Below are positions 3,098-19,102 of a stretch of 64,000 bases of DNA, one piece after another (position 1 is the stretch's first letter; every line of letters begins with the position of its first letter). This DNA is from an uncultured Anaerolineales bacterium. Lineage in GTDB: Bacteria; Chloroflexota; Anaerolineae; UBA1429. The stretch spans positions 7,817 through 71,816 of the forward strand of contig CAZYWU010000007.1 in the NCBI GenBank assembly GCA_964651255.1, in the 5' to 3' direction. The position numbers and the translations under genes were made by a program. The notes beneath the pieces were generated by a model. The model was given only the letters and a program-made list of their open reading frames with translations, was not told where the DNA came from and ran no database searches.

Positions 3098-3856
3098 TCA
3101 ACCGATGCGATCTCCGTTTCGGCCCATCCTCCCCAACGCCCACTCTACCGCCAGGGGCACCTGCGCATCCCAGGTCCCGTGGTCGTGGGCGCCGGCATGC
3201 TCGATCCAATCGTGCGCCAGGCCCAATGCGGCGAGGTGCTCGTGGAACGCCAGGTTTGTGCCGTACAGGTGGTCCTCGGTGCCGCAGGAGAGGCGCAGGG
3301 CGACCGAGGGGCTGCCTGGCGCCGGATGCTCCGTCAGGTAAAAGACATCGTTCGTCTCGCGGGGCAGCGCCCGCCCCAGAGCGCCCACGTCGTCATCCTC
3401 GTGCCGGCCGGTCATGTCGTGCCCGTAGTAGGTCGAGCCCGAGATCGATGCGCCGGCGCAGAACAGATCGGGGTGCTTGAGCGACAGCAACAGGGCGCCG
3501 TACCCGCCCATACTCAACCCAACGCAGGCGCGGGCCTCCCGCTCGCGCCGCACAGGAAAGACGCGTTCCACATAAGTGCGGATCTCGTCCGCCACATAGT
3601 CCTCGTACGGCAGGCCGCCCGGGCGCGGGTCGTTGGTGTAATAGGACCGATCGGCATCCGGCATTACCACGACCGCTGGCTTGCCCTCCATGATCCGCTC
3701 GAGGTTGTGGAACCTCGTCCAGACCGAGGCATCGGCTGAAAGGCCGTGCAGCAGATAGATGGTCGCAAAGGGAGGATCCCCATCGGGCACCAGCACCTGC
3801 ATCGTGGTGCTCTTACCGATCGTCGCGCTGTACCAGTGAATAATGTGCAGTCCCAC
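3098..3856 (-). CDS. alpha/beta-hydrolase esterase (esterase D / S-formylglutathione hydrolase-like, CE1-type)
   Basis: GLSMGG nucleophile elbow, HGLSADASVW oxyanion region, and a length and motif order typical of putative esterase family proteins. Confidence 0.75.
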   Translation of the reverse strand: MGLHIIHWYSATIGKSTTMQVLVPDGDPPFATIYLLHGLSADASVWTRFHNLERIMEGKPAVVVMPDADRSYYTNDPRPGGLPYEDYVADEIRTYVERVFPVRREREARACVGLSMGGYGALLLSLKHPDLFCAGASISGSTYYGHDMTGRHEDDDVGALGRALPRETNDVFYLTEHPAPGSPSVALRLSCGTEDHLYGTNLAFHEHLAALGLAHDWIEHAGAHDHGTWDAQVPLAVEWALGRMGRNGDRIG

Positions 3857-3901
3857 TATACGCCTCCCTGACGGTCGTTCTCGTCCCTTTTCTCCGTTCC
3901 A

Positions 3902-4822
3902 TCACAGGACCTGGGAACCGCCCCCCGCAGCCCGCTGCGTCCTGGGAACGATGAGCTGCACCGCTCCAGAGATCACACGGGCAGTGACGGGCGTGCAGCC
4001 GATCAAATCCCCATCGGCCTGAACGTCCAGCGGCTCGCGGCACGTGATCGTAACCTCATCATGAACGTCCAGGACCTGAATGTGCCGGCGCGTCCGGCGG
4101 CGACCGAGCAGCAGCTCCCAGGCTACATGCAAATAGTCGCGCACATCCCGGGCGCGAAAGGCGACAACCTGTAGAACGCCGTCCGCAGGATGGATGCTGG
4201 TCGAGGCGCGCAGATCGGGCAGGCCCATCGACGGGCAGTTGGCCACCAGAACCTCCGTGGCGCGCAGACGCATCTCCTCACCGTCAAGAGTGAGGTCGAT
4301 GTCCTTGACGCCTGCTGCGAATAGATTCCTGGCGCCCGCCCACACATACGCCAGCATGCCAAAGCGCTGCTTGTCCTCGGAGGCCGTGTCGCGGATAATC
4401 CCGGCACTCAGTCCGATGCTCAAGTTCAGAAACGCATAGGCGTCGCCCACCTGAATGGCGTCGAGGGCGAGGGTAGCATGCTCTCCAGCGATCAGACCCA
4501 GCGCATCCTCTAGCCGGCTAGGCAGACCCGTATCATGTGCGAGCACATTGGCGGTCCCCTCCGGAAGGATGCCCAGCTCGACGCCGGTCCCCACCAGATT
4601 TGCTGCGACGACACGCACGGTGCCATCGCCACCGGCGGCAACCACCGCGTCCACCCCCGCCGCCACATGCTCCTGGATCACCGGGCCAACATCGCGGCCC
4701 TCCTCGAGCAGGTACAGCTCATAGCTCCATGGATCGATCAGCCGGCGCGCCAGGGCTCCGCGCAACTGATCGATATTGGCACTGCCCGACCTGGGGTTCG
4801 CAACAACGAAGGCTTTCGGCAT
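3902..4822 (-). CDS. YegS/BmrU-type lipid kinase (diacylglycerol kinase catalytic domain family)
   Basis: Start is placed at MPKAFVV (an AGGAAG RBS precedes it), not at the upstream M of the track ORF. GGDGT motif (AAGGDGTVRVVA) and the DAGK_cat fold signature are present. Confidence 0.75.
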   Translation of the reverse strand: MPKAFVVANPRSGSANIDQLRGALARRLIDPWSYELYLLEEGRDVGPVIQEHVAAGVDAVVAAGGDGTVRVVAANLVGTGVELGILPEGTANVLAHDTGLPSRLEDALGLIAGEHATLALDAIQVGDAYAFLNLSIGLSAGIIRDTASEDKQRFGMLAYVWAGARNLFAAGVKDIDLTLDGEEMRLRATEVLVANCPSMGLPDLRASTSIHPADGVLQVVAFRARDVRDYLHVAWELLLGRRRTRRHIQVLDVHDEVTITCREPLDVQADGDLIGCTPVTARVISGAVQLIVPRTQRAAGGGSQVL

Positions 4823-5002
4823 ACGCTGCTTCCTACTGTGCCGCTCGCACGTAGCGCATCGGGTTTGCCAGCAGACGACTGCGAGCCGAGTATACCGGCG
4901 GCCGCCTGGCACCTCAAGCGCCCAGCCGGACCCCAGAGTTTACGGCGTTCTCTGGCCACGAGCCAGCGCGAGCCCTGTAATGTGAGCGGCGTCATCGTAG
5001 AG

Positions 5003-5929
5003 TCAAGAGGGATAATACTGCGCCGCGAAGAGCACAGGATCGGCATAGTGTCCGTTCCAGACCCAGTACTGCGGCTCGGGATGAGAGCCCCAGCAGAGCG
5101 CGTGATGCTCGCCGCGGACACTCAGCGCGTGAATCATCACAAAGGAGAGCAGGTCATCGGACATGTACTGCAGGTCTCCCATGGCCTCCTCGCAGGCGGC
5201 ACGAAGCGATAGTCCCATCTTGAGATAGAGCACTACGGCGCGCGCGGTGCCGGCACGGATGGTCAGCTCGCCCTGCCCAATACAGGCCGCAGCTCCGTAA
5301 CGGTCGTCCACGTAGGACCCGGCCCCCACGATGGGTGAATCACCGAGCCGCCCGGGATACTTGAGCGCCCATCCGCTCGTGCTCACGCCGGCCGCCATGT
5401 GACCGGCATCGTCCTGCGCCAGATACACCGTGGTCCCATGGGTGTGCATGGGATCGGCGGCGCGCCACGCCAGGTCCGCGAGCGGACCGGCCGACGCGGC
5501 TTCATCTCCGTCACCGGCATTGGCCTCGTCGCGCCAGCGCTCCCAAAAAGCCCTGGCCTCACTTGTGAGGTTGTCGCCCGCTTCCGAGCCGCACTCTGCC
5601 GCGAACAACGCCGCCCCTTGCCCGACCAGCAGCACGTGCGGTAACCGCTCCATCACACATCGAGCGACACTGATCGGGTGTAGATAACCCTGCAGCGCGC
5701 CCACTGCTCCGGTGCGCAGCGTGCGACCATCCATGATGGCGGCATCCAGCTCCACCTGGCCCAGAAGATTCGGCCAGCCGCCGGTCCCCACCGTGTGGTT
5801 CTCAGGATCCGCTTCCACAGCGCGGATGCCCCGCTCGATGGCATCGAGTGCGGCACCGCCCCCACGCAGCACACCAGCGGCCAGGCCAACTCCCACACCG
5901 CCTCCCTGATTGCAGATCACGATCCCCAT
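5003..5929 (-). CDS. Ntn-hydrolase of the asparaginase_2 family (isoaspartyl peptidase / L-asparaginase, or glycosylasparaginase)
   Basis: MGIVICNQGGG N-terminus, HGTT autoprocessing/nucleophile Thr motif, and GRLGDSPIVGAGSY and AACIGQGE blocks typical of plant-type asparaginase / aspartylglucosaminidase. Confidence 0.8.
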   Translation of the reverse strand: MGIVICNQGGGVGVGLAAGVLRGGGAALDAIERGIRAVEADPENHTVGTGGWPNLLGQVELDAAIMDGRTLRTGAVGALQGYLHPISVARCVMERLPHVLLVGQGAALFAAECGSEAGDNLTSEARAFWERWRDEANAGDGDEAASAGPLADLAWRAADPMHTHGTTVYLAQDDAGHMAAGVSTSGWALKYPGRLGDSPIVGAGSYVDDRYGAAACIGQGELTIRAGTARAVVLYLKMGLSLRAACEEAMGDLQYMSDDLLSFVMIHALSVRGEHHALCWGSHPEPQYWVWNGHYADPVLFAAQYYPS

Positions 5930-6078
5930 CGGCGCCCCCTCAAGTCGCTCTTGCGCTAACGCCCCGTTTCATGCGATTCATGCCCTGTAGCAACAGGGCA
6001 CGCGTTCGGTTGCGTGCCCTGCAGTCCTGTATATTTCGTGGTCCGAGATTCCGCTCTGGAGCGATTCCCGACCCGTGC

Positions 6079-6999
6079 TCAGATGGCGTAGGTGTGCAAG
6101 AGCTCCTGCGCCACAAGCAACGACTCTCGGGCAGCCGCCTCCGGGTCGTCGTTCTCGTTCAGGTCCACCGTCCACCAGGAGAGCTTTTTGAGCTCCTCGC
6201 GCAGGTAATAAAGGTCCGTTTCATAGTCGATCTTGCCCTGCCCCAACGCAACGTGCGAGCTGCTCTCGCTGCGCGGCGAGATCGTGCCATCGGTATCCGA
6301 AAGATGCAGGTGCCCGATATAGTCCTGGATATCGCGCCCCAACGAGACGATACCATACGGCAACGTCTGTCGAATGCCTGGCTGGCGCGCGCCCATGACT
6401 GTCATCATATAGGCATGGCTCATATCGAGAATGACGTGCATGTTGCGCTCGGGCATGGCCTCGAGCAGGCGACGCACTTCACTGGGCTTGTTGATCAGAA
6501 AGCGGGGTTCGAACTCCCACTGCAGCCCGACACCGATCTTCAGCCCTGCCTCGGCGGCCCTGTCCCAGTTTACGACTACCCTGCGAAAGCGCGCGGCGTA
6601 TTCCTCAGCGGTGAGCTCCTCGGGGGGCACGCCAGTGTCCACCCGCAGCACGTCGGTGCGCACGCCGACACAGAGCTCCATGGCCTTCATGATCTCGGCC
6701 AGATAGGTCTCCTCGTCGGTCAGTGCCGCCGGCACATGGCGCAGGTCAGGGGCGTAACCCGAAACGGCCAGCCCGCGGCTCTCGATCATGGCGCGCAAGG
6801 CCTGGCGCTTTTCCGGGGTGTCATAGTCGTCATAGTGAGCGTGTGGGCGATACCCGCTCAGTTCGACGCCCTCGTAACCGACCTCCGCCGCAAAGTCGAG
6901 CACGCGCTCAAGACTCCACGGATTGTCCGTATAGGGCCCTCGCAAAAAGGCCCATGTTCCCAGCGATATCTGCGGCATTCTTTTCTCCTCGCACGACAC
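6079..6999 (-). CDS. Sugar phosphate isomerase/epimerase (xylose-isomerase-like TIM barrel)
   Basis: AP-endonuclease-2 / xylose-isomerase-like TIM barrel signature (GYEGVEL, metal-binding H/D/E pattern). About 300 aa. Confidence 0.7.
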   Translation of the reverse strand: MSCEEKRMPQISLGTWAFLRGPYTDNPWSLERVLDFAAEVGYEGVELSGYRPHAHYDDYDTPEKRQALRAMIESRGLAVSGYAPDLRHVPAALTDEETYLAEIMKAMELCVGVRTDVLRVDTGVPPEELTAEEYAARFRRVVVNWDRAAEAGLKIGVGLQWEFEPRFLINKPSEVRRLLEAMPERNMHVILDMSHAYMMTVMGARQPGIRQTLPYGIVSLGRDIQDYIGHLHLSDTDGTISPRSESSSHVALGQGKIDYETDLYYLREELKKLSWWTVDLNENDDPEAAARESLLVAQELLHTYAI

Positions 7000-7208
7000 A
7001 TCTGCGCTCTTTGCCAGGCACGGCTCAGGGCCCCTCTGCCCGGAGCGACGCCTGCCTCAAGGCCTATATTCTAGCGAATGGCCGCCCCACCGGCAAACCG
7101 CGCGGGGCTCCAGCCACGGAGCGCAGCGTCTCGAGATGAGAGCGGGCCGCCCATCCAGGCGACCCGCCAGGGCAAATCCACCACGCTCTCGCGGTGCAGC
7201 GCACAACC

Positions 7209-7949
7209 CTATCCCCGGCCGAGGTACTTTTGCTGCAAGGGCAACACGATCGCCTCCAGCATATTGGCCTCGGGCGGCAAGGTCACCATCAGCAGCGCCG
7301 TGCGCGCGATGACGTCGACGTCGAACATCGGCTCCTCATCGGCCGCCCGCCCATGCTGCTGGCCCAGCGCGCGACGTTCAACGAAGGTGTTGCCCGGGTG
7401 CAGGGCGCTCACGGCAATGCCATAGTCGCGACCCTCCAGCGCAGCGGCCTGCGTAAGTCCCCAGACACCGAACTTGGTCGCGGTGTAGGGGGCCGACCGC
7501 TCGCGGCTGCGCTGGGCCGAGATGCTGCCAATATTGATGATGCGCCCGCCGCCGGCTGGCTTCATGATGCGAAAGGCCTCGCGGATGCAGAGGAAGGGCC
7601 CGGTCAGGTTCGCGTTCACCACGTTCTGCCAGGCAGAGAGGGGGATGTCCTCGATCCAGCCGCCATCAAAGGCGCCGGCGCTGTTTACCAGGATGTCCAG
7701 CCGGCCGTACTCTTGCATGGTGCGCGCGAACAGCGCCGCCACCTGCTCTTCATTGGCCACATCAGCAGGCACGGCCAGTGCCTTGCCGCCCGCCGCCCGC
7801 ATCTTCTCGGCAGCAGCCTCCAGGCGCTCAGCCTTGCGCCCCGCCAGCACCACGGCGCACCCTTCGCTGGCGTACAGTCTTGCGATGCCCTTGCCGATGC
7901 CGCTCCCGCCGCCCGTGATGATCGCTACTTTACCGTCCAGTTGTCCCAT
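7209..7949 (-). CDS. SDR-family NAD(P)-dependent oxidoreductase
   Basis: TGGGSGIGKG Rossmann motif, NSAG, and the S...YxxxK catalytic triad (SAPYTATK). Confidence 0.85.
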   Translation of the reverse strand: MGQLDGKVAIITGGGSGIGKGIARLYASEGCAVVLAGRKAERLEAAAEKMRAAGGKALAVPADVANEEQVAALFARTMQEYGRLDILVNSAGAFDGGWIEDIPLSAWQNVVNANLTGPFLCIREAFRIMKPAGGGRIINIGSISAQRSRERSAPYTATKFGVWGLTQAAALEGRDYGIAVSALHPGNTFVERRALGQQHGRAADEEPMFDVDVIARTALLMVTLPPEANMLEAIVLPLQQKYLGRG

Positions 7950-9014: not shown

Positions 9015-11147
9015 TCAGTCGCCCAGCAGCACGGCCATGCCCCACTCGGACATGGTGAGGGTGGCGATCTGGCCGTCCACCACGGTTTCGATAGCCACCG
9101 CGCTGTCGCTCAACAGCTCGCGCCCCGACTGGCTAAAAGTCCCGGGAGGGAAGCGGAGCGTCACCGTCTCCGCCTGGTCGCAGAATACAAACACCATAGG
9201 CCGGCCGAGGGTATAGCCGGTGCGCAAATACACGTCGCGCGCGGCCAGCCCCTCCGGGGACACCACCTCCGCCGGCAGCTCTACGCCGGCCTCACGCACA
9301 ATCGCCGCTACAAAACTCTCAAAGTCGGCTGCGTACGGCGCATAGCGAGAGTCCTTGCTGGAAGAGCCTTCGAAATAGGCATCTCCCATGATGGCACCAC
9401 AGAGAATGACTTGCCCCTCACCCACGGGTACCCTGACGAACAGGGCGCCATCGGAGGCCTCGCCCAACACCTCGCCTGTACCGGTATTGAATGGAGTAAG
9501 CCACTGCTTCGCGGGCACCTGTAGCTCCTGTCCGGCAACCTTGACACTCACCGCATCCCCTGTCAGCGTCCGGCGTCCCACGTCGGCGACACCGGTCAGA
9601 TCGGCCAGGAAGCGATCCTCGGCGTAACGGTAAAGACCATTGCGGCCAAAGGCGCCGCACTCGGCCTCGGCCACCAGTGTGCCCCCGCTTTCCAGCCAAT
9701 CGGCCAGGGCATCCGCCTGCTCTGCATCGATCACCAGCGAGCGCGGCATGAACAGCACGTCGATCTCGTCCAGGCTGTCCAGGTGCTCCTCCTCGATGAT
9801 CGTATAGGGGATATGGCTGCGCAACAGCGCTCGGGTATACCCGAGGAGCGCGTTCTGCGGCAAATTCGCGTCGCCCTCCTGGTTCCAGTGCAGGTAGTAG
9901 CTCTGCGGGCTGAAATAAACACCCACCGCTGGTACATGCGGGGTGTAGGAGGCAATCTCATCGCGATACTGCTGCAGCACGCGCGCCGTCTTGCGCATGG
10001 CAGCGAGGCGAGGTTCCGCCAGGCCATCGGAGCCGATCAGCCCGAACCCGGACGACTCTGAACCAAAGACCTCATCGCGCCAGCACCAGAACAGGATCGT
10101 GTCGGCACCGCTGCTGATACCGGTCCAGACCCAGCGCTGCTGGTTGGCCGGCTGCACTGGATCGTGGCTCTCGAATCCGCGCGCGGCCCTGCCGCCCTGT
10201 AGCTCGCTCAGCCAGACCCGCTTGCCACGGGCAGCCGAGCGCACACACTCGATGCGCATCGCCAGGTCGGCATCGGAAAAGTGGAACCAGGTGGGAAAGC
10301 TCGAACAGCCAATCCCGTCCATCTCGTCGGCAAAGAACCAGTCATTGCCGCGGTTCAGAGCGGTCTCCGGGAAGCGCATGCCGTAGAGCACCGTCGGTGC
10401 GCCGCCATGGACGGTGACCGGATGATCAGGATCCAGTTCCTTAACCACATCGTAGCGCGCCAGGCCCAGCTCGGTAGCCCGCCAGGTGAGAAAATGCTCC
10501 CAGGCCATCATGGTAGTGTAGGGACTGCGCGGAAACTTGCCGGGCAGTATCTGTCGCCAGTCGGAGTAACGCGTATTCCACGCGGCGTTGACCCCCTCCA
10601 ACCCGCCATAGGTAGCATCGAGCCAGGCGTGGTACCGGTTGACGGTGTAGGGGCAATGGCACACCTGTCCATCGGCGTTGACGTTCCAGCGCAGCTCGTT
10701 CCAGGCGTCCCAGCCCACCAAATTGGGCGCCGAGCGATAGCGCGTGACGACTTGCTCGAGGAAACCGGCCATGCGGTCCCACACGCCGGGGTGGTCAGTG
10801 CATCCGCCCGGTGTAAGCCCAAAGTGACCTTCGCCGCGGTTGGACGAGATGACCTTGTGCCCCATATGGTCGATCATCTCGCTGCCGGGCACCGCATCAT
10901 GGATCCAGTATGGCTGGAGCTCAGCGATCGTGCTCAGCACGACACCCAACCCCGCCTTGTCCGCCAGCGAAACCAGTTCGTCATAGTCCTCGAATCGATA
11001 GTTGTCCGGCCGCGGCTCGCACCAGCTCCACAACACCCAGAGCTGCACCGTGTTCAGCCCGGCGTCCGCCATGCGCATCATGTCGTCGCGCCAGTAGCGG
11101 CGATTCGGGAACGGTGCCCGATAGTACTGTGCCCCCAGATGGATCAT
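9015..11147 (-). CDS. GH42 family beta-galactosidase
   Basis: Start is placed at MIHLGAQYYRAPFP (an AAAGGAA RBS precedes it). GH42 hallmark blocks are present (QYYR, WSWCEP, GWDAWNE with the acid/base Glu) plus the trimerisation and C-terminal domains. Confidence 0.85.
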   Translation of the reverse strand: MIHLGAQYYRAPFPNRRYWRDDMMRMADAGLNTVQLWVLWSWCEPRPDNYRFEDYDELVSLADKAGLGVVLSTIAELQPYWIHDAVPGSEMIDHMGHKVISSNRGEGHFGLTPGGCTDHPGVWDRMAGFLEQVVTRYRSAPNLVGWDAWNELRWNVNADGQVCHCPYTVNRYHAWLDATYGGLEGVNAAWNTRYSDWRQILPGKFPRSPYTTMMAWEHFLTWRATELGLARYDVVKELDPDHPVTVHGGAPTVLYGMRFPETALNRGNDWFFADEMDGIGCSSFPTWFHFSDADLAMRIECVRSAARGKRVWLSELQGGRAARGFESHDPVQPANQQRWVWTGISSGADTILFWCWRDEVFGSESSGFGLIGSDGLAEPRLAAMRKTARVLQQYRDEIASYTPHVPAVGVYFSPQSYYLHWNQEGDANLPQNALLGYTRALLRSHIPYTIIEEEHLDSLDEIDVLFMPRSLVIDAEQADALADWLESGGTLVAEAECGAFGRNGLYRYAEDRFLADLTGVADVGRRTLTGDAVSVKVAGQELQVPAKQWLTPFNTGTGEVLGEASDGALFVRVPVGEGQVILCGAIMGDAYFEGSSSKDSRYAPYAADFESFVAAIVREAGVELPAEVVSPEGLAARDVYLRTGYTLGRPMVFVFCDQAETVTLRFPPGTFSQSGRELLSDSAVAIETVVDGQIATLTMSEWGMAVLLGD

Positions 11148-11277
11148 CTTTTGTTCCTTTCCGCCTCGGGGGTTGCCCGGGCTGGCTCGATTGTATGCGA
11201 GGCGGGGGCCCATGCACAAGCGCCCCCGCACAGAACGTTCCCACGACCCCATGCAATGACTGCGGCGTTACACCGTC

Positions 11278-12459
11278 TCAGGCTTTGATCACCACACAGG
11301 GAGACTGGTTCACCACCTCATCATTCAAGGCAATGCCCAGCCCGGGCTCTTCGGGCACCACAAAGACACCCCGCTCCGGCTGCAGGTTCGGCGTGCAGAG
11401 GGCGATGTTATCCGCCTTGAGCGCGCGGGTGTGATGCTCGTGGATGCCAAAGTTCGGGATGGCCGCCTCGAGGTGCAGGGCCGCGGCGGTAGCCACTGGA
11501 CTGCCGCACACGTGCACTTGCACCAGGATGTCGTAGACATGGGCATAATCGCAGATCTTTTTGCCCTCAGAGATGCCGCCCACCAGGCCCAGATCGGGCT
11601 GGATCAGGCTCAGGGTCTGCTGCTCAAAGTAGGGACGGTAGCCCCAGCGCGTGTAGATGCGCTCGCCGGCCGCCGTAGGGATCGACACACTGTGTGCCAC
11701 CAACTCGTGCAGGGCGGGGTTCACATAGTGCACAGGCTCCTCGTACAGGATGCACTCAAAGGGCTCCCACAGCCTGCCGAGCTGAATGGCGTTGCTCGTA
11801 GTGAGATGCGAGTGCGCCTCAATGATGATATCGACGTCCGGCCCCACTGCCTCCCGGATGGCGCCCACCCGGTCGCGGTAGCAACGCAGCTGGGCGGCAG
11901 AGAACAACCCCCGTAACATCCGTGTGTCCGTCTCGCCTTGCGGTCCGAACATGATCGGATCGACCTTGACACAATCGTATCCCTCTTCGACCGCTTTGAG
12001 CGCGGCCTCCGCATACTCCTCCGGTTGCACCAACTTCTCAGTCTCCGGACCCCAGCCGAACTGAATCTGGCTGGCATAAGTACGCAGGCGTTCGTTTGTC
12101 TTTCCGCCCAGCAACTGGTACACCGGCACGCCCAGCGCCTTGCCCTTGATGTCCCACATCGCTGTGTCGATGGCGCTCATGCCGCCATACACCACGGGGC
12201 CGCCGCCACGCCCCCAAAAGCTCGCGCGGAACATGGTGTCCCACAACAACTCGCTCTGGAACGGGTCGGCACCCAGCACAAACTGCTCGGCCAGATTGCG
12301 CGCCATGCCGATGCCGGCGCTATGGCCCGTGCCGTAGGCCAGCCCCACCTCGCCCAGTCCCGTGATACCGTCGTCGGTCGTGGCCCGCAGGATCACCGGA
12401 TGCCACGCTGGGGCGCTCTCCATGTGGATATCGAAAACCTCAACCTGTACGACCTTCAT
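11278..12459 (-). CDS. Enolase-superfamily sugar-acid dehydratase, D-mannonate/D-galactonate dehydratase-like subgroup
   Basis: Start is at MKVVQVEV with a GGAGG RBS. The motif order (GITGLGE ... FWGRGGGPV ... AMWDIKGKALGVPVYQLLGG) parallels ManD. The track ORF extends upstream with an implausible Arg/Trp-rich leader. Confidence 0.8.
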   Translation of the reverse strand: MKVVQVEVFDIHMESAPAWHPVILRATTDDGITGLGEVGLAYGTGHSAGIGMARNLAEQFVLGADPFQSELLWDTMFRASFWGRGGGPVVYGGMSAIDTAMWDIKGKALGVPVYQLLGGKTNERLRTYASQIQFGWGPETEKLVQPEEYAEAALKAVEEGYDCVKVDPIMFGPQGETDTRMLRGLFSAAQLRCYRDRVGAIREAVGPDVDIIIEAHSHLTTSNAIQLGRLWEPFECILYEEPVHYVNPALHELVAHSVSIPTAAGERIYTRWGYRPYFEQQTLSLIQPDLGLVGGISEGKKICDYAHVYDILVQVHVCGSPVATAAALHLEAAIPNFGIHEHHTRALKADNIALCTPNLQPERGVFVVPEEPGLGIALNDEVVNQSPCVVIKA

Positions 12460-12520: not shown

Positions 12521-14857
12521 TCACGCAACGAGGACACGCCGCAGCGCGGCATGGTCCAACTCTTCAGCCACACGCAACCAGACCTCGCGCGCGCCAGGAT
12601 AGCCGAGGTCCGGCTCAAAGCCCAGATCCAGATACAGGCGAATGGCCCCCAGCCGATACGATTGGGTGCCGAGGTAGGCGCGCGTGTGCCAGCGGGCCAG
12701 CTGGTGCAGCGTATAGGCCAGCGCCGCGCGTGCCAGCCCCAGCCGGCGATACGCCGGGCGGATGGCGACCCAGTGCACCTGCCCCCACGATTCCCCCTGC
12801 GCATCCTCGCGGATCCAGGCGGAGATGGTGCCGACAGCCACGCCGCGCGGTCCCGTCACCAGGTAGCAGCGCCAACCGATAGCCGGCAGGTTGCTGCCAA
12901 ACACGCGCTCGAAAAGTCCGTCCTCGATGGCAAAGTAGGGCTCGGCATCGCGCCAGATATCCGCCCACAGCCCGCCCTCGTCCGGCTGCATGGGGCGGAT
13001 GCCATACCCCTCGGGGAAGGGCACATCAGGAATATCTGTGAGATCGCGACGGATCATATGGAGCACGTCTCCAGCAGCATTCCGCTCAGGTCCCGGTGGG
13101 AGCGGAGGCGGCAGACCTTGCCTGGCGCGAAACAGCCTTCTCACCGTGGCCAGGGCCCGCTTGGGCCGGCGGTCACGGGTTACCACGCCGTATGGGCTCA
13201 GCGCCAGGCCGTGGCAGAAGGATAATACGTTTGCCGGCCAGGAATGATCGGCCCAGCACCACATGGTAGCGCCACAGACATACGGGGCATCCATGCCGGC
13301 CAATTCCGCTTCTATCGCCCGGGCCTGCCAGTCTTCGCCCAGAGCACTCTCCCGGCTGCCCTCCAGCGCCGCGTAGCCGAACTCGGTCACCAGGATGGCC
13401 TTGTCCGGGTGGCGGGCGTGCAGTTCGGCCAGTCCATCACGCCACCAGACCGTCGACTCTGCCAGGTCGTAGCCGGAATCCCCGGCCAGCCCGCGCCGAT
13501 CCAGCGTGGGATAACCATTGACGCAGAGCACATCGTCCTCTTCGAAATGGGGCTGATCGCGCCAGTGGTTGCTCACGTGGACCGCCAGCCGGGTCGGATC
13601 TGCCTCGCGAGCCACGCGGATCAGGTGGGCGTTGCCCGCTGCCACCTCTGGCCGCTGCTCCTCCGTCTCATTACTGACCGACCAGACGATCAGGGCGGGG
13701 TGATGGCGGTCGCGCTCGATCATGGCCCTGAGCTGGCGTTCCGCAGCCTCCAGTTTCGCTTCGGGCATGCCCGCGCCCTCGGCCTCGCCGCGCCACCAGT
13801 AGAGCGGGATCTCGCCCATCGCCAGCAAGCCCAGCTCATCGCACAAATCCAGTTCGTCCGGGTGGTGCGGGTAGTGGCACAGACGCACGAAATTGGCGCC
13901 CGCATCACGCATGCTGCGCAGATCGCGACGCACTGTGTCGCGATCCTCAGCCATGGCCACCGTTGGCGCGTCCTCGTGGCGGTTGAACCCGGTGAGCACC
14001 AGCGGCTCACTGTTCAGCAGCAGCCTGCCTTCTTGCGCCGCTATGCTGCGAAAGCCCGTGCGCCGACTGATGCTGTCGACGACCGCTCCGTCGCAGAGCA
14101 GTGACGCCTCGACCGTGTACAACACCGGCGCGACAGGCGACCAGAGGGTGACGCCCGGCACCTGGCTGCGGAGCACGCAGGGGGCCGCCTTGCCAGGAGC
14201 AAGGCACATGTCCCCGCTCTCTACACAGGCCAGCTCGTGGCCCTCCCCATCGAGCACGCGCACGCGCAAACATGCATCGGCCGATTGCGAGCGCGCGTTG
14301 GCCAGCGTAGCGCAAGCCGTCAGCGTACCGCCCCGCTTGGCCGGCAGCGCATCCAGCGCCACATCCTTGATGTATAGCCGGTCCGTCGCGACCAACTCGA
14401 CTCGCCGCTGCAGCCCGCCACAGGTCCGCCAGCCCCGCTCCAGGCCGGGCACGTCCCCGGCCCGCCGGATGTTGTCCGTGCACACCGCCAGGGTCGTCGG
14501 GCCGTCCCAGTTGACGTGATCGGTTATGTCGACCTCAAAGCCCAGGAACCCATCGGGATGGGTTCCGGCGAGCCGGCCATCGACCCACACCTGCGCGTGG
14601 TAATGCACCCCGTGAAACCGCAGGACGATGCGACGCCCCTGCCACTCTGAGGGGATGTCCAGCCCCCGCCGGTACCAGCCGGCTCCCTCATAGTCCGCCA
14701 GCGCAGGCACCGCCACATCCCAACAGGAGGGCACCCACACCTCGCGCCAGTGCTCGTCTGTGCACAGCGGACTGGCAAAGCCCAGGGTCTCGCCCTCGCC
14801 GGTCGGATCAGGCTGAAAGCGCCACACGCCTGTCAGATCGATGCTCTCTCTCAACAC
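12521..14857 (-). CDS. GH2 glycoside hydrolase (beta-galactosidase/beta-mannosidase/beta-glucuronidase family) with a fused C-terminal GNAT N-acetyltransferase domain
   Basis: N-terminal sugar-binding and Ig-like domains. TIM barrel with acid/base WSVSNETEE and nucleophile ILVTEFGY. The C-terminal ~170 aa carry GNAT motif A (RRLGLARAALAYTL) in the same ORF. Confidence 0.8.
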   Translation of the reverse strand: MLRESIDLTGVWRFQPDPTGEGETLGFASPLCTDEHWREVWVPSCWDVAVPALADYEGAGWYRRGLDIPSEWQGRRIVLRFHGVHYHAQVWVDGRLAGTHPDGFLGFEVDITDHVNWDGPTTLAVCTDNIRRAGDVPGLERGWRTCGGLQRRVELVATDRLYIKDVALDALPAKRGGTLTACATLANARSQSADACLRVRVLDGEGHELACVESGDMCLAPGKAAPCVLRSQVPGVTLWSPVAPVLYTVEASLLCDGAVVDSISRRTGFRSIAAQEGRLLLNSEPLVLTGFNRHEDAPTVAMAEDRDTVRRDLRSMRDAGANFVRLCHYPHHPDELDLCDELGLLAMGEIPLYWWRGEAEGAGMPEAKLEAAERQLRAMIERDRHHPALIVWSVSNETEEQRPEVAAGNAHLIRVAREADPTRLAVHVSNHWRDQPHFEEDDVLCVNGYPTLDRRGLAGDSGYDLAESTVWWRDGLAELHARHPDKAILVTEFGYAALEGSRESALGEDWQARAIEAELAGMDAPYVCGATMWCWADHSWPANVLSFCHGLALSPYGVVTRDRRPKRALATVRRLFRARQGLPPPLPPGPERNAAGDVLHMIRRDLTDIPDVPFPEGYGIRPMQPDEGGLWADIWRDAEPYFAIEDGLFERVFGSNLPAIGWRCYLVTGPRGVAVGTISAWIREDAQGESWGQVHWVAIRPAYRRLGLARAALAYTLHQLARWHTRAYLGTQSYRLGAIRLYLDLGFEPDLGYPGAREVWLRVAEELDHAALRRVLVA

Positions 14858-14902
14858 ATCCTCCTCACCTGTCGGGCAGGTTACTGAGCGGGATCCATGA
14901 CG

Positions 14903-15685
14903 CTACAAGCGGAGGCACGCCTCAAAGGCCAGCCTCAGCACCTGCTCGCGGTTGTCGTGCCGGTGCACCCAACCTCGCGAGTCCCAGTCCAGGCCGCTGA
15001 CATCGTCACCGGCGTAGAGCAGCTGTCCGAGAACGATGTCGCGGAACTGCGCCACGGCAAAGAGGGCCGCGGCCTCCATCTCCACGCAGAGGCAACCCTC
15101 GCTTCGGCGCAGGCGCACCTTGGCGGGCGTCTCGCGGTAAAAGGCGTCCGTGGTCCAGGCCGTGGCCAGGAGGTGCGGTATCCCGTGACCCTCAAGCGTG
15201 CCGACGAGCGCTGCCACCGCTTCCGGATGAGGGGCGGCGCGGCGGCTTGGCGGCAGATAATGATATGAAGTGCCCTCGTCGCGCACGGCATCCTGCAACA
15301 CCAGCAGATGGCCAACGGCGATCTCCCGATCCAGCACGCCGCCCCCGCCGCATACAATGACCTTGCGCACGCCGCAGGCGATGGCCTCCTCGAGCACGGC
15401 CGCGGCAAAGGGCGCACCCACTCCGGGGTGCAGCAGCCCGATCCGGCGCCCCTCAAAGTCGACTTCATAGGCCGGATTTGGCCCTACCTCTGAGCTGAGC
15501 GTCGCCAGCGGGCGTGCGATGCCCGCGTCAACCAGCGCTTGGATCTGCTCGGCGAAAAAGCAGAGCACCAGGCGCTCGGGAAAGGGCGTGTCGAGCCGAA
15601 AACGGCTGGGCTCGATGACCGCCGGCGAAGGGTCATACTCCAATAGCGGGATCTCCTGCGGCGGCACTTCCTTCAATCTGTTCAT
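14903..15685 (-). CDS. Nucleoside phosphorylase family protein (PNP_UDP_1 fold; purine/uridine phosphorylase or nucleosidase-like)
   Basis: GVGAPFAAAVLEE and VEMEAAALF blocks typical of phosphorylase family 1. Confidence 0.7.
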   Translation of the reverse strand: MNRLKEVPPQEIPLLEYDPSPAVIEPSRFRLDTPFPERLVLCFFAEQIQALVDAGIARPLATLSSEVGPNPAYEVDFEGRRIGLLHPGVGAPFAAAVLEEAIACGVRKVIVCGGGGVLDREIAVGHLLVLQDAVRDEGTSYHYLPPSRRAAPHPEAVAALVGTLEGHGIPHLLATAWTTDAFYRETPAKVRLRRSEGCLCVEMEAAALFAVAQFRDIVLGQLLYAGDDVSGLDWDSRGWVHRHDNREQVLRLAFEACLRL

Positions 15686-15908
15686 CCTTTCAGCGCCAGC
15701 CAGCCTCGTTGCGCGTTCTCAGCCAGCGGTGGCGTGATTGCAGACAGATCATAGCGTTACTGCCCAGGAGGCTCAAGCGCAACACGGCTCCTCCGCAACG
15801 TCTTGACCGTTTCTTCACATCGTGGTGGTATACTCTTACTATATGTGGAAAATGTGTGCTGTCTTCCGGGAGATGTCGGCAGGCGACCTGTGCCAGGTCC
15901 ACGAATGA

Positions 15909-15924: not shown

Positions 15925-15941
15925 GGCCACAGAGGTTGAGC

Positions 15942-16628
15942 ATGAACGAACGCATACTGGTTGTGGATGACGAGCCCGAGATCGTGCGGGTGTTACGAGG
16001 ATACCTGGAGCAGGCCAACTACACTGTTTTGACGGCCTCCAGCGGGCCGGAGGCGCTGCGCCGCGCGCGCACCGAAGCTCCTGACCTCATTCTGCTGGAT
16101 GTGATGCTCCCGGGCATGGACGGCATCGATGTCTGTCGCAGCATCCGCCAGACCTCCAACGTCCCCATCATCATGGTGACCGCCCGCGTCGAAGAGACCG
16201 ACCGCGTGCTGGGCCTGGAGCTGGGCGCCGATGACTATATCACCAAGCCCTTTTCGCCGCGCGAGGTCGTCGCCCGGGTGCGCGCCGTACTGCGCCGCAC
16301 TCACGCCGAGCCCGTCGCCGAATCCGAGATCCTCACGGTGCACGACCTGACGCTGGACGTCGGCCGCCACTCGGTCGTCAGAGGCGACGAGGTGCTGGAG
16401 CTCACCCCCTCGGAGTTTGAGATTCTGCGCGCCATGATGAGCGCGCCCGGGCGCGTCTTGACACGGCTACAGCTGCTGGAGGCGGCTCAGGGCCAGGCCT
16501 ATGAGGGCTATGAGCGCACGGTGGATACCCACGTCAAGAACCTGCGGCGCAAGATCGAGCCGGACCCGCCCAACCCCTCGTACATTCTCACAGTGCACGG
16601 GATCGGCTACAAGCTCAAGGAAACCTGA
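15942..16628 (+). CDS. OmpR/PhoB-family response regulator (REC + winged-helix DNA-binding domain)
   Basis: ILVVDDEPEI...LLDVMLPGMDG...KPF receiver motifs and a C-terminal trans_reg_C wHTH. ATG at 15942 has better RBS spacing (AGAGG) than the TTG at 15936. Confidence 0.9.
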   Translation: MNERILVVDDEPEIVRVLRGYLEQANYTVLTASSGPEALRRARTEAPDLILLDVMLPGMDGIDVCRSIRQTSNVPIIMVTARVEETDRVLGLELGADDYITKPFSPREVVARVRAVLRRTHAEPVAESEILTVHDLTLDVGRHSVVRGDEVLELTPSEFEILRAMMSAPGRVLTRLQLLEAAQGQAYEGYERTVDTHVKNLRRKIEPDPPNPSYILTVHGIGYKLKET

Positions 16629-16629
16629 C

Positions 16630-18006
16630 ATGCTCAAGCGCCTGCCCCTCGCCGTCAAGATCTCGCTGGTGGTCGCTCTGGCGGTGGCCGTATCCACGGC
16701 CGCGCTGGCCACAGCGGTGCTCTATGCCGCTCGCAGCGGATTTGGCGATTACCTGTCGGTGGAGGTCACCGAGCGCACCTATGAGCTGCGCCCGCTGCTG
16801 GAAGAGTACTATGCCACTCAGGGCTCCTGGGAGGGTGTCGATCGCTTGATGCGCCAGGACATAATGCAGGGTGGCATGGTTCGGCGCGGCCGGATGGGGC
16901 CGGGCACCACATCGCTGGTGCTGGTCGATCCCACCGGCCAGGTGCATTACGCCCCCTTTGGCACCCCGAGCGTCTCGATCACCCTGCGCAACATCCGGCG
17001 CTATGGCGTGCCTCTGCAAGTCGATGGACACACGGTGGGGTATTTGATGGTGCAATCCGGCGTCCAGGAGGAGGGGTTTTACCGGAGTCTGTTGGGCACT
17101 ATCATCCGCGCCGGCGCCATCACCACCCTCCTGGCCATCGGAATCGGCCTGTTGCTGACCAGAAGCGCCTTGCGTCCCCTGAGGGAGCTGGAGGCAGCGA
17201 CCGAGCGCATCAGCGCTGGCGACCTCTCAGCCCGCGTGCCGGTGCGCGCCCGCGACGAGGTGGGAGCGGTGGCCGAGCGCTTTAACGCCATGGCTGCGGA
17301 CCTGCAGGATCAGGACGCCATCCGGCGCCGCATGATGAACGATATCGCCCACGAGCTGCGCACCCCCCTGACAGTGATGCAGGGGCAGATCGAGGCACTG
17401 CAGGACGGTGTGTTCGCCCTCTCACCCGAGAACCTCGAGCCGGTCCACGGGCAGACCTTGCTGCTCAAGCGGCTGGTGAACGATCTGCGGGACCTCGCCC
17501 TGGCCGAGTCCGGCCAGATCGCGCTGGACATGGCGCCGGTGGATCTGGGCCGGCTGGTGCCACGGGTAATCGCACGCTTTGCGCCCCAGGCCCAGGCGCA
17601 GGACGTGACACTGGAGATCTCGCAGCCCGGCGCGGTGCCTTCGATCCAGGGCGATGCCCAGCGGCTGGAGCAGGTGCTGAACAACCTGCTCAGCAACTCG
17701 CTGCGGCACACCCCCGCCGGGGGCCATGTAACGCTGGCTTTGAGCGCCACTTCCGACCGCGTGCGCATCACTGTACAGGACACGGGCGAGGGCATCCCTG
17801 CGGATGACCTGCCGCACATCTTTGAGCGTTTTTACCGCAGCGACCGCGCCCGGCAGCGCGGCGACGGCCACACCGGTCTCGGCCTGGCCATCGCCCGGGA
17901 GCTGGTGCGCGCCCACGGCGGCGACATCAGCGCCGCCAGCGTTCCCGGCGAGGGTACGACACTGACCATCGATCTGCCTGCCTCCCCGGCGGCGCCTAGT
18001 CTCTGA
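16630..18006 (+). CDS. Sensor histidine kinase (2 TM, HAMP, HisKA, HATPase_c), partner of the upstream regulator
   Basis: ATG overlaps the regulator's stop (TGACATG). H-box IAHELRTPLT. N, G1 (DTGEGI) and G2 (GLGLAIA) boxes present. Confidence 0.85.
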   Translation: MLKRLPLAVKISLVVALAVAVSTAALATAVLYAARSGFGDYLSVEVTERTYELRPLLEEYYATQGSWEGVDRLMRQDIMQGGMVRRGRMGPGTTSLVLVDPTGQVHYAPFGTPSVSITLRNIRRYGVPLQVDGHTVGYLMVQSGVQEEGFYRSLLGTIIRAGAITTLLAIGIGLLLTRSALRPLRELEAATERISAGDLSARVPVRARDEVGAVAERFNAMAADLQDQDAIRRRMMNDIAHELRTPLTVMQGQIEALQDGVFALSPENLEPVHGQTLLLKRLVNDLRDLALAESGQIALDMAPVDLGRLVPRVIARFAPQAQAQDVTLEISQPGAVPSIQGDAQRLEQVLNNLLSNSLRHTPAGGHVTLALSATSDRVRITVQDTGEGIPADDLPHIFERFYRSDRARQRGDGHTGLGLAIARELVRAHGGDISAASVPGEGTTLTIDLPASPAAPSL

Positions 18007-19102
18007 CGCCGAACTGCTCCAGGGTCTCCTCGCGCAGTTCGGTGCCGAACCCGATCCCCTCGGGCGCATAGATCATTCCGCCCTCGATGCGGGCGCGATC
18101 CACATACATCCCGGGGCCTTTGGGCTTGCCGCCAGTCTCGCACCAGATGGCCGTGGGGGTGGCCATCAACAGATGCGTGGTGACGCCCTCTCCGCCGTGG
18201 CTGGCGACGGCCACATGGTTGGCGGAGGCGAGGCCGGCGATCTCCATCCACTCGCTGGGGCCGCCGGTGCGCCGTGCATCGGGCTGCAGGATGTCGCAGC
18301 CCCGTGCAGTGATGAGCTCCTGCACCGCATGGCGCCCATAGTGATTCTCGCCTGTCGCCACAGGAACGGCGAGTTGGTCGCACAGCCAGGTGTACCCGGC
18401 CGTATCGTGCGGCCGCAGCGGCTCCTCAAACCAGTGCACGCCCAGCTCCTGGTAGACCAGACCGCGACGCAGCGCTTCGTTGCGGTCCAGCACCTGGTTC
18501 GCGTCCACCATGACGAGGCCCGACGGCCCCACGATCTCGCGGGCGATCTCGATGCGTCGCACGTCGTCTTCCAGCGGGCCGCCGGCGACCTTGATCTTGA
18601 CCCCCGTGAATCCATCGCGCACCACAGTCTCCAGCGCCCGCCGGTAATGGCTGAGGTCGCCATCGTCGTCATAGTACCAGCCGACCATGGCGTAGGCCGG
18701 GATGCGATCGCGGCAGGCGCCCAGCAGGCGCCAGCCGGGCACCCTCAGGGACCGAGCCATCAAATCCCAGAGGCAGGCGTCCAGCGCCGTCAGGGCGAAA
18801 TGGGCCATGCCCTGGGCGCCGACGTACTCCAGTTCGTGGGTCATGCGCTCACGCAAGAGCCGTGGCAGGAAGGGGTCCCCGCCAACCAGTGCCGGCGCCA
18901 GCTGCCGCTCGATCAGCACCTGCAGCGCAGGCGCAGCATGAATCGAGACGCCCAGATAGATATAGCCGTGGCCCGTGAGGCCGGCGTCGGTACGCACGCG
19001 GACCACGACCCCGGCACGATCGCCAAAGCGGTGCTGGGCATCGGCATAGCCGCCGCGATCGGGAAAAGCCAGGCGGATGGTTTCTACCGAGGTGATCTGC
19101 AC
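17996..19102 (-). CDS. Mandelate racemase/muconate-lactonizing-enzyme family protein (enolase superfamily), second copy in the window
   Basis: Capping domain plus TIM barrel with KxK (VKIKV), the metal ligands D/E/D (VDANQ, FEEP, QPD) and a His-Asp dyad region. Confidence 0.8.
   Translation of the reverse strand: MQITSVETIRLAFPDRGGYADAQHRFGDRAGVVVRVRTDAGLTGHGYIYLGVSIHAAPALQVLIERQLAPALVGGDPFLPRLLRERMTHELEYVGAQGMAHFALTALDACLWDLMARSLRVPGWRLLGACRDRIPAYAMVGWYYDDDGDLSHYRRALETVVRDGFTGVKIKVAGGPLEDDVRRIEIAREIVGPSGLVMVDANQVLDRNEALRRGLVYQELGVHWFEEPLRPHDTAGYTWLCDQLAVPVATGENHYGRHAVQELITARGCDILQPDARRTGGPSEWMEIAGLASANHVAVASHGGEGVTTHLLMATPTAIWCETGGKPKGPGMYVDRARIEGGMIYAPEGIGFGTELREETLEQFGVRD

Follow-up and report, generated by a model that had tools for sequence, protein, structure and literature searches.

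Does a single bacterial open reading frame (ORF) that joins a glycosidase to an acetyltransferase represent a genuine fusion gene, and what could the two activities accomplish together? The question is raised by a stretch of 64,000 nucleotides (hereafter the window; positions 7,817 to 71,816 of contig CAZYWU010000007.1, assembly GCA_964651255.1) from an uncultured Anaerolineales bacterium, in which the minus strand from 12521 to 14857 forms one ORF of 778 amino acids plus stop codon. Its product consists of a glycoside hydrolase family 2 (GH2) module followed by a GNAT acetyltransferase domain. This fusion is genuine, far beyond what chance or an artefact could produce; it is widely distributed among bacteria, both of its catalytic sets are conserved, and both domains are under purifying selection. 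As discussed below, the protein is tentatively regarded as a bifunctional cytoplasmic enzyme.

Architecture of the fusion protein

Translation could begin equally well at the GTG codon at 14857, with which the ORF starts, or at the neighbouring TTG at 14854. Pfam matches were judged by the curated gathering cut-offs, and those to the three GH2 models (PF02837, PF00703, PF02836) and to Acetyltransf_1 all lay above them, the latter covering residues 664–747 with an E-value of 9.6e-12 and 45.6 bits (cut-off 20.7). A sequence-only reading of the window had proposed a complete GH2 module and a C-terminal GNAT fold in this 778-residue ORF, and both were borne out by these domain searches. The motifs quoted there (WSVSNETEE, VTEFGY, a Pro/Gly-rich linker, and RRLGLA at residues 704–709) could likewise be mapped in the translation (Table 1). 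The AlphaFold2 (AF2) model of the full-length protein has a pLDDT of 93.2 and a pTM of 0.91, the latter suggesting a fixed mutual arrangement of the GH2 and GNAT domains. Inspection of the protein sequence revealed no hydrophobic signal sequence at the N-terminus; since a GNAT also needs acetyl-CoA, the enzyme is predicted to be cytoplasmic and to act on imported oligosaccharides or glycosides.

Distribution and history of the fusion

A search covering 5.8 billion proteins retrieved more than 115 full-length homologues of 770–830 amino acids with identities of 47–83%, virtually all of which contain GH2 and GNAT Pfam domains. Their database names clash, as the same homologues are called “GNAT family N-acetyltransferase” by NCBI and “beta-glucuronidase” by JGI. 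The closest homologue (P0001 at locus L061; 83% identical, 778 amino acids) is encoded by Anaerolineae bacterium AnMBR.bin515. A scan of GTDB with one genome per species yielded 201 relatives, and 80 loci, all from metagenome-assembled genomes (MAGs), were fetched. Carriers of the family at these loci belong to the Chloroflexota (Anaerolineae, Thermoflexales, and “Chloroflexia”), the Planctomycetota (Brocadiia, Phycisphaerae, and Tepidisphaerales), the Verrucomicrobiota, Lentisphaerales, Kiritimatiellia, Armatimonadota, and Poribacteria, and one is a Polyangiaceae MAG. No publication describing a GH2-GNAT fusion was found in full-text literature searches.

When the two halves were queried separately by tblastn, 72 of the 80 loci had the GNAT immediately behind the GH2 without a change of frame. 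The other eight loci harbor nine GH2-only genes of 575–660 amino acids that end just past the barrel, and tblastn detected no GNAT within 10 kb of any of them. Adjacent but split GH2 and GNAT genes were not detected by tblastn in 82 loci with flanks of up to 10 kb (less on short contigs). The GH2 parts were also compared in a rough neighbour-joining tree, calculated without support values, in which the GH2-only genes are scattered among the fused ones; this suggests an old fusion from which the GNAT was occasionally lost. In one Phycisphaeraceae MAG (L069), two GH2-only paralogues are arranged in tandem (3648–5459, 603 amino acids; 5477–7225, 582 amino acids) with no GNAT nearby.

The sequence-only reading had named a frameshift that merged two separate genes as a finding that would speak against the fusion. 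Such an assembly or sequencing artefact, in which neighbouring genes merge through a frameshift or the loss of a stop codon, has practically no probability, because the same continuous architecture recurs in more than 115 independent assemblies and, always in one frame, in 72 of the 80 GTDB loci, and no split version was detected; nothing was found in its favor. It is also countered by the linker, which is co-linear with those of the homologues and has a ratio of nonsynonymous to synonymous substitution rates (dN/dS) of 0.10 in comparison with L061. The corresponding values of 0.13 for the GH2 part and 0.10 for the GNAT part are nearly equal and thus indicate equally strong purifying selection on both halves since the separation from the closest orthologue.

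The glycoside hydrolase half

Membership in GH2 is supported by the three Pfam models, by the secondary structure of the AF2 model, and by Foldseek matches to GH2 structures with TM(target) values of 0.84–0.88. Beta-glucuronidases were the best PDB matches by both approaches: the sequence search retrieved gut and clostridial enzymes with E-values of about 1e-50 to 1e-47, and the Foldseek matches of the full-length model at the above TM values shared 23–26% identity. In the alignment with the beta-glucuronidase GUS-2 of B. uniformis (BuGUS-2), N396-E397 and E492 lie opposite its catalytic motifs, and in a family alignment of 77 members E397, E492, N447-x-Y449, and W533 are invariant, whereas N396 is nearly so. 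No Pfam match to a further GH2 C-terminal domain was obtained, and the GNAT occupies the region past the barrel.

The best NCBIfam model was that of beta-glucuronidase (NF007538), which scored 241 bits against an equivalog cut-off of 544; models of GalA/GalB-type beta-galactosidases reached 207–210 bits (cut-offs 900) and those of LacZ 122–173 bits (cut-offs 999–2000). In beta-glucuronidases, an N-x-K motif (N566 and K568 in E. coli) recognizes the C6 carboxylate of glucuronate. In the alignment to 5uj6, S554-P555-Y556 was found in its place. The fusion family shows no variation at S554, P555, and G557, and the orthologues that consist of GH2 only retain SP[YF]G as well. Because of this replacement the enzyme, although resembling beta-glucuronidases (GUS), lacks their defining feature, and its assignment to them was rejected on the grounds of the missing motif and the NCBIfam score; the JGI label is probably wrong. 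A PDB search with a region of 60 residues around the SPYG loop retrieved no solved GH2 structure that shares it, but only spurious additive matches to TALE repeats. Judged by its conserved residues, the GH2 half is a retaining exo-beta-glycosidase that is predicted to be active, has a GUS-like three-domain architecture, and represents a separate, uncharacterised subfamily devoid of the carboxylate-binding motif.

The acetyltransferase half

The C-terminal domain has the GNAT fold and carries motif A and Y742. In GNATs, motif A forms the pyrophosphate-binding loop for acetyl-CoA, and a tyrosine in helix alpha4 is the usual general acid. As both are conserved, the domain looks catalytically competent and unlike a pseudo-acetyltransferase. 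A HMMER search with this domain against 1.84 billion representative sequences returned 1504 matches (485 at E ≤ 1e-10), many of which are stand-alone proteins of about 185–200 amino acids with 35–50% identity over the whole length. In 88 stand-alone relatives, M601, R603, W631, R663, W681, H695, W696, motif A, H724, Y742, and W760 are kept. Since these conserved residues are shared, the extra N-terminal strand and the C-terminal helices belong to the GNAT family itself, and a pre-existing GNAT therefore appears to have been joined to the GH2. No NCBIfam model that could name the GNAT family scored near its cut-off. The closest structural match was MshD, a small-molecule enzyme, and the weak PDB sequence matches were mostly N-terminal acetyltransferases (Naa10/Ard1, RimI).

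Members of the same GNAT family are also linked to other enzymes. In P0241 (442 amino acids) a PF00756 esterase domain precedes the GNAT, and in P0212 (768 amino acids; L089, 7001–9307) an erythromycin-esterase-like domain follows it, which suggests a tendency of this family to combine with hydrolases. A candidate for a split arrangement, the stand-alone GNAT P0126 (L083) beside two genes suspected to encode a clan-A glycosidase and a URO-D-like protein, was dropped, as neither gene had a Pfam match or BLAST similarity to the fetched loci.

Gene neighbourhoods

In the relatives' loci, genes were called with an own script, so that gene limits are approximate and the context statistics are descriptive. 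The overall theme of the neighbourhoods is glycan and sugar-acid catabolism, with no universal partner. An enolase-superfamily dehydratase gene follows the fusion gene in the window, L061, and L001, whereas in L003 an enolase gene is located upstream instead; these four loci also share GH42 (replaced in L001), 2-hydroxyacid dehydrogenase, SDR, xylose-isomerase-like, and Asparaginase_2 genes. Together with UxuA mannonate dehydratases (7 loci) and ILVD/EDD dehydratases, sugar-acid dehydratases of three superfamilies thus occur near the fusion. AP_endonuc_2 proteins are encoded directly upstream of it in nine loci, heparinase II/III-like proteins nearby in seven, and GH4 enzymes in six loci from three phyla. 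S1 sulfatases with SGSH_C, the C-domain of N-sulfoglucosamine sulfohydrolase, are directly adjacent in three loci of three lineages. Other neighbours comprise GFO/IDH/MocA-GH109-like oxidoreductases, GH127, GH29, and GH20 enzymes, and SASA esterases.

URO-D-like proteins (PF01208) that fall into four unrelated sequence clusters occur in about 19 loci of three phyla (Chloroflexota, Brocadiia, and Poribacteria), either directly downstream of the fusion gene (L005, L008, L011, L012, L017, L018, L024, L027–L029, L043, L053, and L059) or upstream (L012, L017, L020, L043, L014, L038, and L039). Both Brocadiia loci with URO-D-like genes also carry an MttB-family methyltransferase and a GH4. The URO-D-like and MttB neighbours hint at a methyl-transfer or demethylation step tied to the same substrate; no paper on URO-D-like genes in glycan loci was found in the full-text literature searches. 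In six Anaerolineae loci (L012, L017, L020, L022, L029, and L059), the GH2-GNAT and URO-D-like genes are followed, two to four genes downstream, by NIF3/DUF34 and by a GT4 glycosyltransferase with a QTMAN_N domain that resembles tRNA-queuosine mannosyltransferases. A heliorhodopsin gene (PF18761) is present at 2269–3099 of L001, approximately 7 kb upstream of GH2-GNAT on a contig of 165 kb.

In the window, the fusion gene is preceded at a distance of 45 nt by a gene of the nucleoside phosphorylase superfamily, an adjacency shared only with the closest relative L061. Promoter-like hexamers were found 5' of this phosphorylase gene (15748–15865), whereas terminator-like matches around the operon did not exceed chance. 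The nucleoside phosphorylase and the GH42 named as neighbours in the sequence-only reading were thus recovered, but its label “ManD-like” for the downstream dehydratase does not hold, because this protein scored 231 bits as galactonate dehydratase (cut-off 311) and 191 bits as ManD (cut-off 550) and is assignable to neither. The ORF list also contains a longer version of the dehydratase ORF that extends upstream into the fusion gene. The argument that the non-homologous mannonate dehydratases ManD and UxuA together imply glucuronate is weakened, as the enolase-superfamily protein in the window scores better as galactonate dehydratase.

The GH42 protein is very divergent, with a best PDB match of only E 5e-29 to GH42 beta-galactosidases. 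Its interpretation as an archaeal-type exo-beta-glucosaminidase (GlmA) was rejected, since the respective matches had E-values of 1e-11 and 1e-7; the match to the model of the archaeal exo-beta-D-glucosaminidase is short, local, and below orthologue level. The xylose-isomerase-like gene matched fructoselysine 3-epimerase weakly. Upstream of the operon, the ORFs of a response regulator and a HAMP histidine kinase overlap by 128 nt, and the start of the kinase probably lies further downstream than listed. A second enolase-superfamily dehydratase gene is located just past this pair.

Table 1. Predicted features of the GH2-GNAT gene, its product, and neighbouring genes (positions refer to the window)
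Feature	Position	Strand	Basis or remark
Shine-Dalgarno-like GAGGAGG	14860..14866	-	Read from the sequence; just 5' of the GTG (14857) and TTG (14854) starts
GH2 N-terminal sugar-binding beta-sandwich, residues ~1-160	14378..14857	-	Pfam Glyco_hydro_2_N at 46-127, E 1.7e-15; all-beta in AF2 model
GH2 immunoglobulin-like beta-sandwich, residues 162-270	14048..14374	-	Pfam Glyco_hydro_2, E 2.3e-9
GH2 TIM-barrel catalytic domain, residues 274-578	13124..14038	-	Pfam Glyco_hydro_2_C at 274-576, E 2.2e-35; best Foldseek matches beta-glucuronidases
E397 codon, predicted acid/base (N396-E397 in WSVSNETEE)	13667..13669	-	Invariant in 77 members; aligned to NE of B. uniformis GUS-2
E492 codon, predicted nucleophile (VTEFGY)	13382..13384	-	Invariant in 77 members; aligned to SEYG of BuGUS-2
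S554-P555-Y556-G557 loop	13187..13198	-	HMMER alignment to 5uj6: SPYG opposite NNKG (N-x-K carboxylate-binding position of beta-glucuronidases)
Pro/Gly-rich linker RQGLPPPLPPGPERNAAG, residues 579-595	13073..13123	-	pLDDT ~81, below flanks; 35% identity to L003
GNAT domain, residues 596-778 (183 residues)	12524..13072	-	With an additional N-terminal strand and two helices at the C-terminus
GNAT motif A, R704-R-L-G707-L-A709 (Q/R-x-x-G-x-G/A)	12731..12748	-	G707 and R700 invariant; family consensus Q-G-x-G-L-G
Y742 codon, conserved GNAT tyrosine in helix alpha4	12632..12634	-	Invariant in fusions; 98% conservation among 88 stand-alone relatives
PNP_UDP_1 (nucleoside phosphorylase superfamily) gene, upstream	14903..15685	-	Pfam
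Enolase-superfamily sugar-acid dehydratase, 393 amino acids, downstream	11278..12459	-	Pfam MR_MLE_N/C
GH42 beta-galactosidase-like, 745 amino acids, divergent	9015..11252	-	Pfam GH42, E 1.8e-44; best PDB matches GH42 beta-galactosidases
Asparaginase_2 (isoaspartyl peptidase/glycosylasparaginase family)	5003-5929	-	Syntenic in window, L001, L003, L061
Xylose-isomerase-like TIM-barrel	6079-6999	-	Syntenic in window, L001, L003, L061
Second enolase-superfamily dehydratase	17996-19102	-	Best L-talarate/galactarate dehydratase, 188 bits, below cut-off
Response regulator, upstream of operon	15936-16628	+	Pair with HAMP histidine kinase
HAMP histidine kinase, upstream of operon	16501-18006	+	Pair with response regulator

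Functional interpretation

The tentatively preferred reading, possible though short of an even chance, is that of a bifunctional cytoplasmic enzyme in which hydrolysis by the GH2 half is coupled to N-acetylation of an amino sugar by the GNAT. Both activities would serve one stream of imported oligosaccharides or glycosides. The GH2 half would exo-hydrolyse a beta-glycoside with E397 as acid/base and E492 as nucleophile, and a free amine would be N-acetylated by the GNAT, the most plausible acceptor being a de-N-acetylated or de-N-sulfated hexosamine. Either the GH2 step would expose or release this hexosamine, or its acetylation would be required for attack by the following glycosidase. Ordinary catabolism of N-acetylglucosamine (GlcNAc) and hexoses or of sugar acids would take up the products. 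We infer that the activities are coupled, as well as what the GNAT acetylates and which sugar the GH2 half cleaves. This reading is supported by the genuine and old fusion, the preservation of both active sites, the nearly equal selection on the two halves, the full-length model, the lack of a signal sequence, and the carbohydrate-catabolic neighbourhoods. It is further supported by a direct biochemical precedent in the GH3-GNAT protein RmNag, whose GNAT region acetylates glucosamine (GlcN) and (GlcN)2-5 using acetyl-CoA, cleavage by the glycosidase occurring only afterwards (PMC4680927). A more specific version appears doubtful, according to which the family is a previously unrecognised class of soluble enzymes in the Chloroflexota, Planctomycetota, Verrucomicrobiota and relatives, and Armatimonadota. 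In this version, a new GH2 specificity would be mechanistically coupled to a glycan N-acetyltransferase that “repairs” free-amine hexosamine termini of partly de-N-acetylated or de-N-sulfated polysaccharides within the polypeptide that also carries out the neighbouring exo-hydrolysis, which would make the protein a bacterial, GNAT-based analogue of the HGSNAT step.

Several observations weigh against a coupled enzyme for amino sugars. The glycosidase can evidently work without a GNAT, as GH2-only genes exist that have none within 10 kb. The exo-beta-glucosaminidase type of GH2 was not among the best 60 PDB matches of the sequence search, and at the fetched loci an amino-sugar-specific gene (NagA, NagB, NagK, or a deacetylase) is nowhere consistently adjacent. 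Gene contexts vary by phylum, and their recurrence is partly plain synteny within the Anaerolineae. As to the acceptor, the similarity of the modelled GNAT to known structures cannot tell acceptors apart; moreover, the closest stand-alone GNATs (35–50% identity) are found in heterogeneous, non-glycan contexts, which together with the esterase fusions means that the acceptor need not be a sugar.

Four other functions of the GNAT were considered. A GH2 enzyme and an acetyltransferase encoded in one transcription unit are classical, as exemplified by LacZ and LacA of the lac operon. The fusion could be the joined counterpart of this pair and act as a safeguard, with the GNAT O- or N-acetylating glycosides or aglycones that cannot be processed, or toxic products, and thereby preventing their re-import or enabling their export. 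The fusion of the same GNAT family to hydrolases of a detoxifying type (the esterase of P0241 and the erythromycin-esterase-like domain of P0212) would fit this explanation, as would the dispensability of the GNAT for hydrolysis that is indicated by the GH2-only orthologues. It is nonetheless unlikely, because LacA is a left-handed beta-helix acetyltransferase without homology to GNATs, an accessory detoxifier would be expected to be less conserved than the glycosidase, contrary to the dN/dS values, and an exporter is nowhere consistently adjacent at the fetched loci. A regulatory role is improbable to a similar degree. Here, the GNAT would sense acetyl-CoA to tune the glycosidase, or acetylate a lysine or the N-terminus of the GH2 or of a partner protein. 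Precedents exist in bacterial GNATs that are fused to sensor or enzyme domains and function as regulated protein acetyltransferases, such as the ACT-GNAT proteins (PMC6434083); the N-terminal acetyltransferases among the weak PDB matches and the tight domain packing suggested by the pTM of the model point in the same direction. However, the partner is a glycosidase with intact catalytic residues and not a ligand sensor, the top structural match is MshD and thus not a protein acetyltransferase, and the putative acceptor-side residues W631, W681, W696, and H724 are kept in the stand-alone GNATs, which speaks for a small acceptor common to the family and against a protein target specific to one lineage.

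Quite unlikely is a pathway resembling heparan sulfate degradation, in which the GH2 would remove a terminal beta-uronic acid and the GNAT would N-acetylate the exposed alpha-glucosamine after N-desulfation, making the protein a soluble counterpart of GUSB and HGSNAT. The lysosomal logic is established (PMC11357348), the GH2 half is nearest to beta-glucuronidases by sequence and fold, and SGSH_C sulfatases, heparinase II/III-like proteins, UxuA, and GH4 recur nearby. These arguments are opposed by the replacement of N-x-K by S-P-Y throughout the family and by the beta-glucuronidase NCBIfam score far below its cut-off; in addition, the SGSH_C and Hepar_II_III Pfam matches are generic, and the window's own locus contains neither a sulfatase nor a lyase. 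Finally, the GNAT could be a silent module for structure or oligomerisation. A non-catalytic GNAT-like domain on a glycosidase has a precedent in the C-terminal pseudo-acetyltransferase of eukaryotic GH84 O-GlcNAcase (discussed in PMC4680927), and the existence of GH2-only orthologues is compatible with such a role. Yet motif A and Tyr742 should have decayed in a silent domain, whereas they show little or no variation among both the fusions and their stand-alone relatives, and this possibility is accordingly rated very low. Overall, the interpretation of the fusion offered by the sequence-only reading is partly supported.

Significance

If the activities are coupled, GH2 would be the third family, after GH3 and GH84, among the few known glycosidase-GNAT fusions, and the protein would establish a new subfamily of GH2, for which the rules for beta-glucuronidases do not reveal the specificity. 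Such an enzyme could explain how abundant but uncultured bacteria that degrade glycans in sludge, sediments, and sponges (Anaerolineae, Brocadiia, Lentisphaerae, Kiritimatiellia, Armatimonadota, and Poribacteria) handle hexosamines with free amines, which block ordinary exo-glycosidases. The mislabelling in databases bears on metagenomic surveys that count glucuronidases. For a specialist in carbohydrate-active enzymes the fusion may come as little surprise, but it represents a clean, testable, and widespread uncharacterised family from uncultured lineages.

Comparison with known systems

The GH2 beta-glucuronidases of C. perfringens (4jkm, 6cxs), B. uniformis (GUS-2, 5uj6), and human (3hn3) have the three-domain architecture in common with the GH2 half of the window protein, as well as the NE acid/base, the TE(F/Y)G nucleophile, and the N-x-Y motif. 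They differ by carrying N-x-K and no GNAT, whereas the window protein has S-P-Y and a GNAT; the identity amounts to 23–26%. On the acetyltransferase side, the actinobacterial MshD (Rv0819, PDB 1ozp) is a tandem GNAT of 290+ amino acids, whereas the GNAT of the fusion is single and resembles it in fold only, scoring 16 bits with TIGR03448 against a cut-off of 163. The lineages that carry the fusion are not known to make mycothiol. The glucosamine/glucosaminide N-acetyltransferase GlmA of Clostridium acetobutylicum (PDB 5kf1) is encoded by a separate gene and is a tandem GNAT of 316 amino acids with 17% identity. A glucosamine N-acetyltransferase of this species and the GH84-GNAT architecture of O-GlcNAcase are both noted in PMC4680927, where the catalytic status of the GNAT-like domain of O-GlcNAcase is treated as controversial. 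The GH84 enzyme resembles the window protein in the order of glycosidase and GNAT in one polypeptide, but it uses substrate-assisted catalysis on GlcNAc, and the GNAT of the window protein keeps motif A and the catalytic tyrosine.

LacZ is a five-domain GH2 enzyme and LacA a hexapeptide-repeat O-acetyltransferase, and the two are encoded by separate genes. What they have in common with the fusion is the functional combination of a glycosidase of GH2 and an acetyltransferase that uses acetyl-CoA to modify glycosides. A similar logic is found in lysosomal heparan sulfate degradation, where cleavage by the GH2 exo-glycosidase GUSB and N-acetylation of terminal glucosamine by HGSNAT are consecutive steps of one pathway (PMC11357348). 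HGSNAT is a separate, multi-pass membrane acetyltransferase unrelated to GNATs, and the GH2 of the window lacks the glucuronate motif. Another parallel in organization is RmNag of the fungus Rhizomucor miehei (PDB 4zm6; PMC4680927), in which a GH3 beta-N-acetylglucosaminidase is followed by a C-terminal tandem GNAT. The window protein differs from it by its GH2 module and single GNAT, which shares 13% identity with that of RmNag, so that it is not a member of the same family. The fusion may nevertheless work like RmNag.

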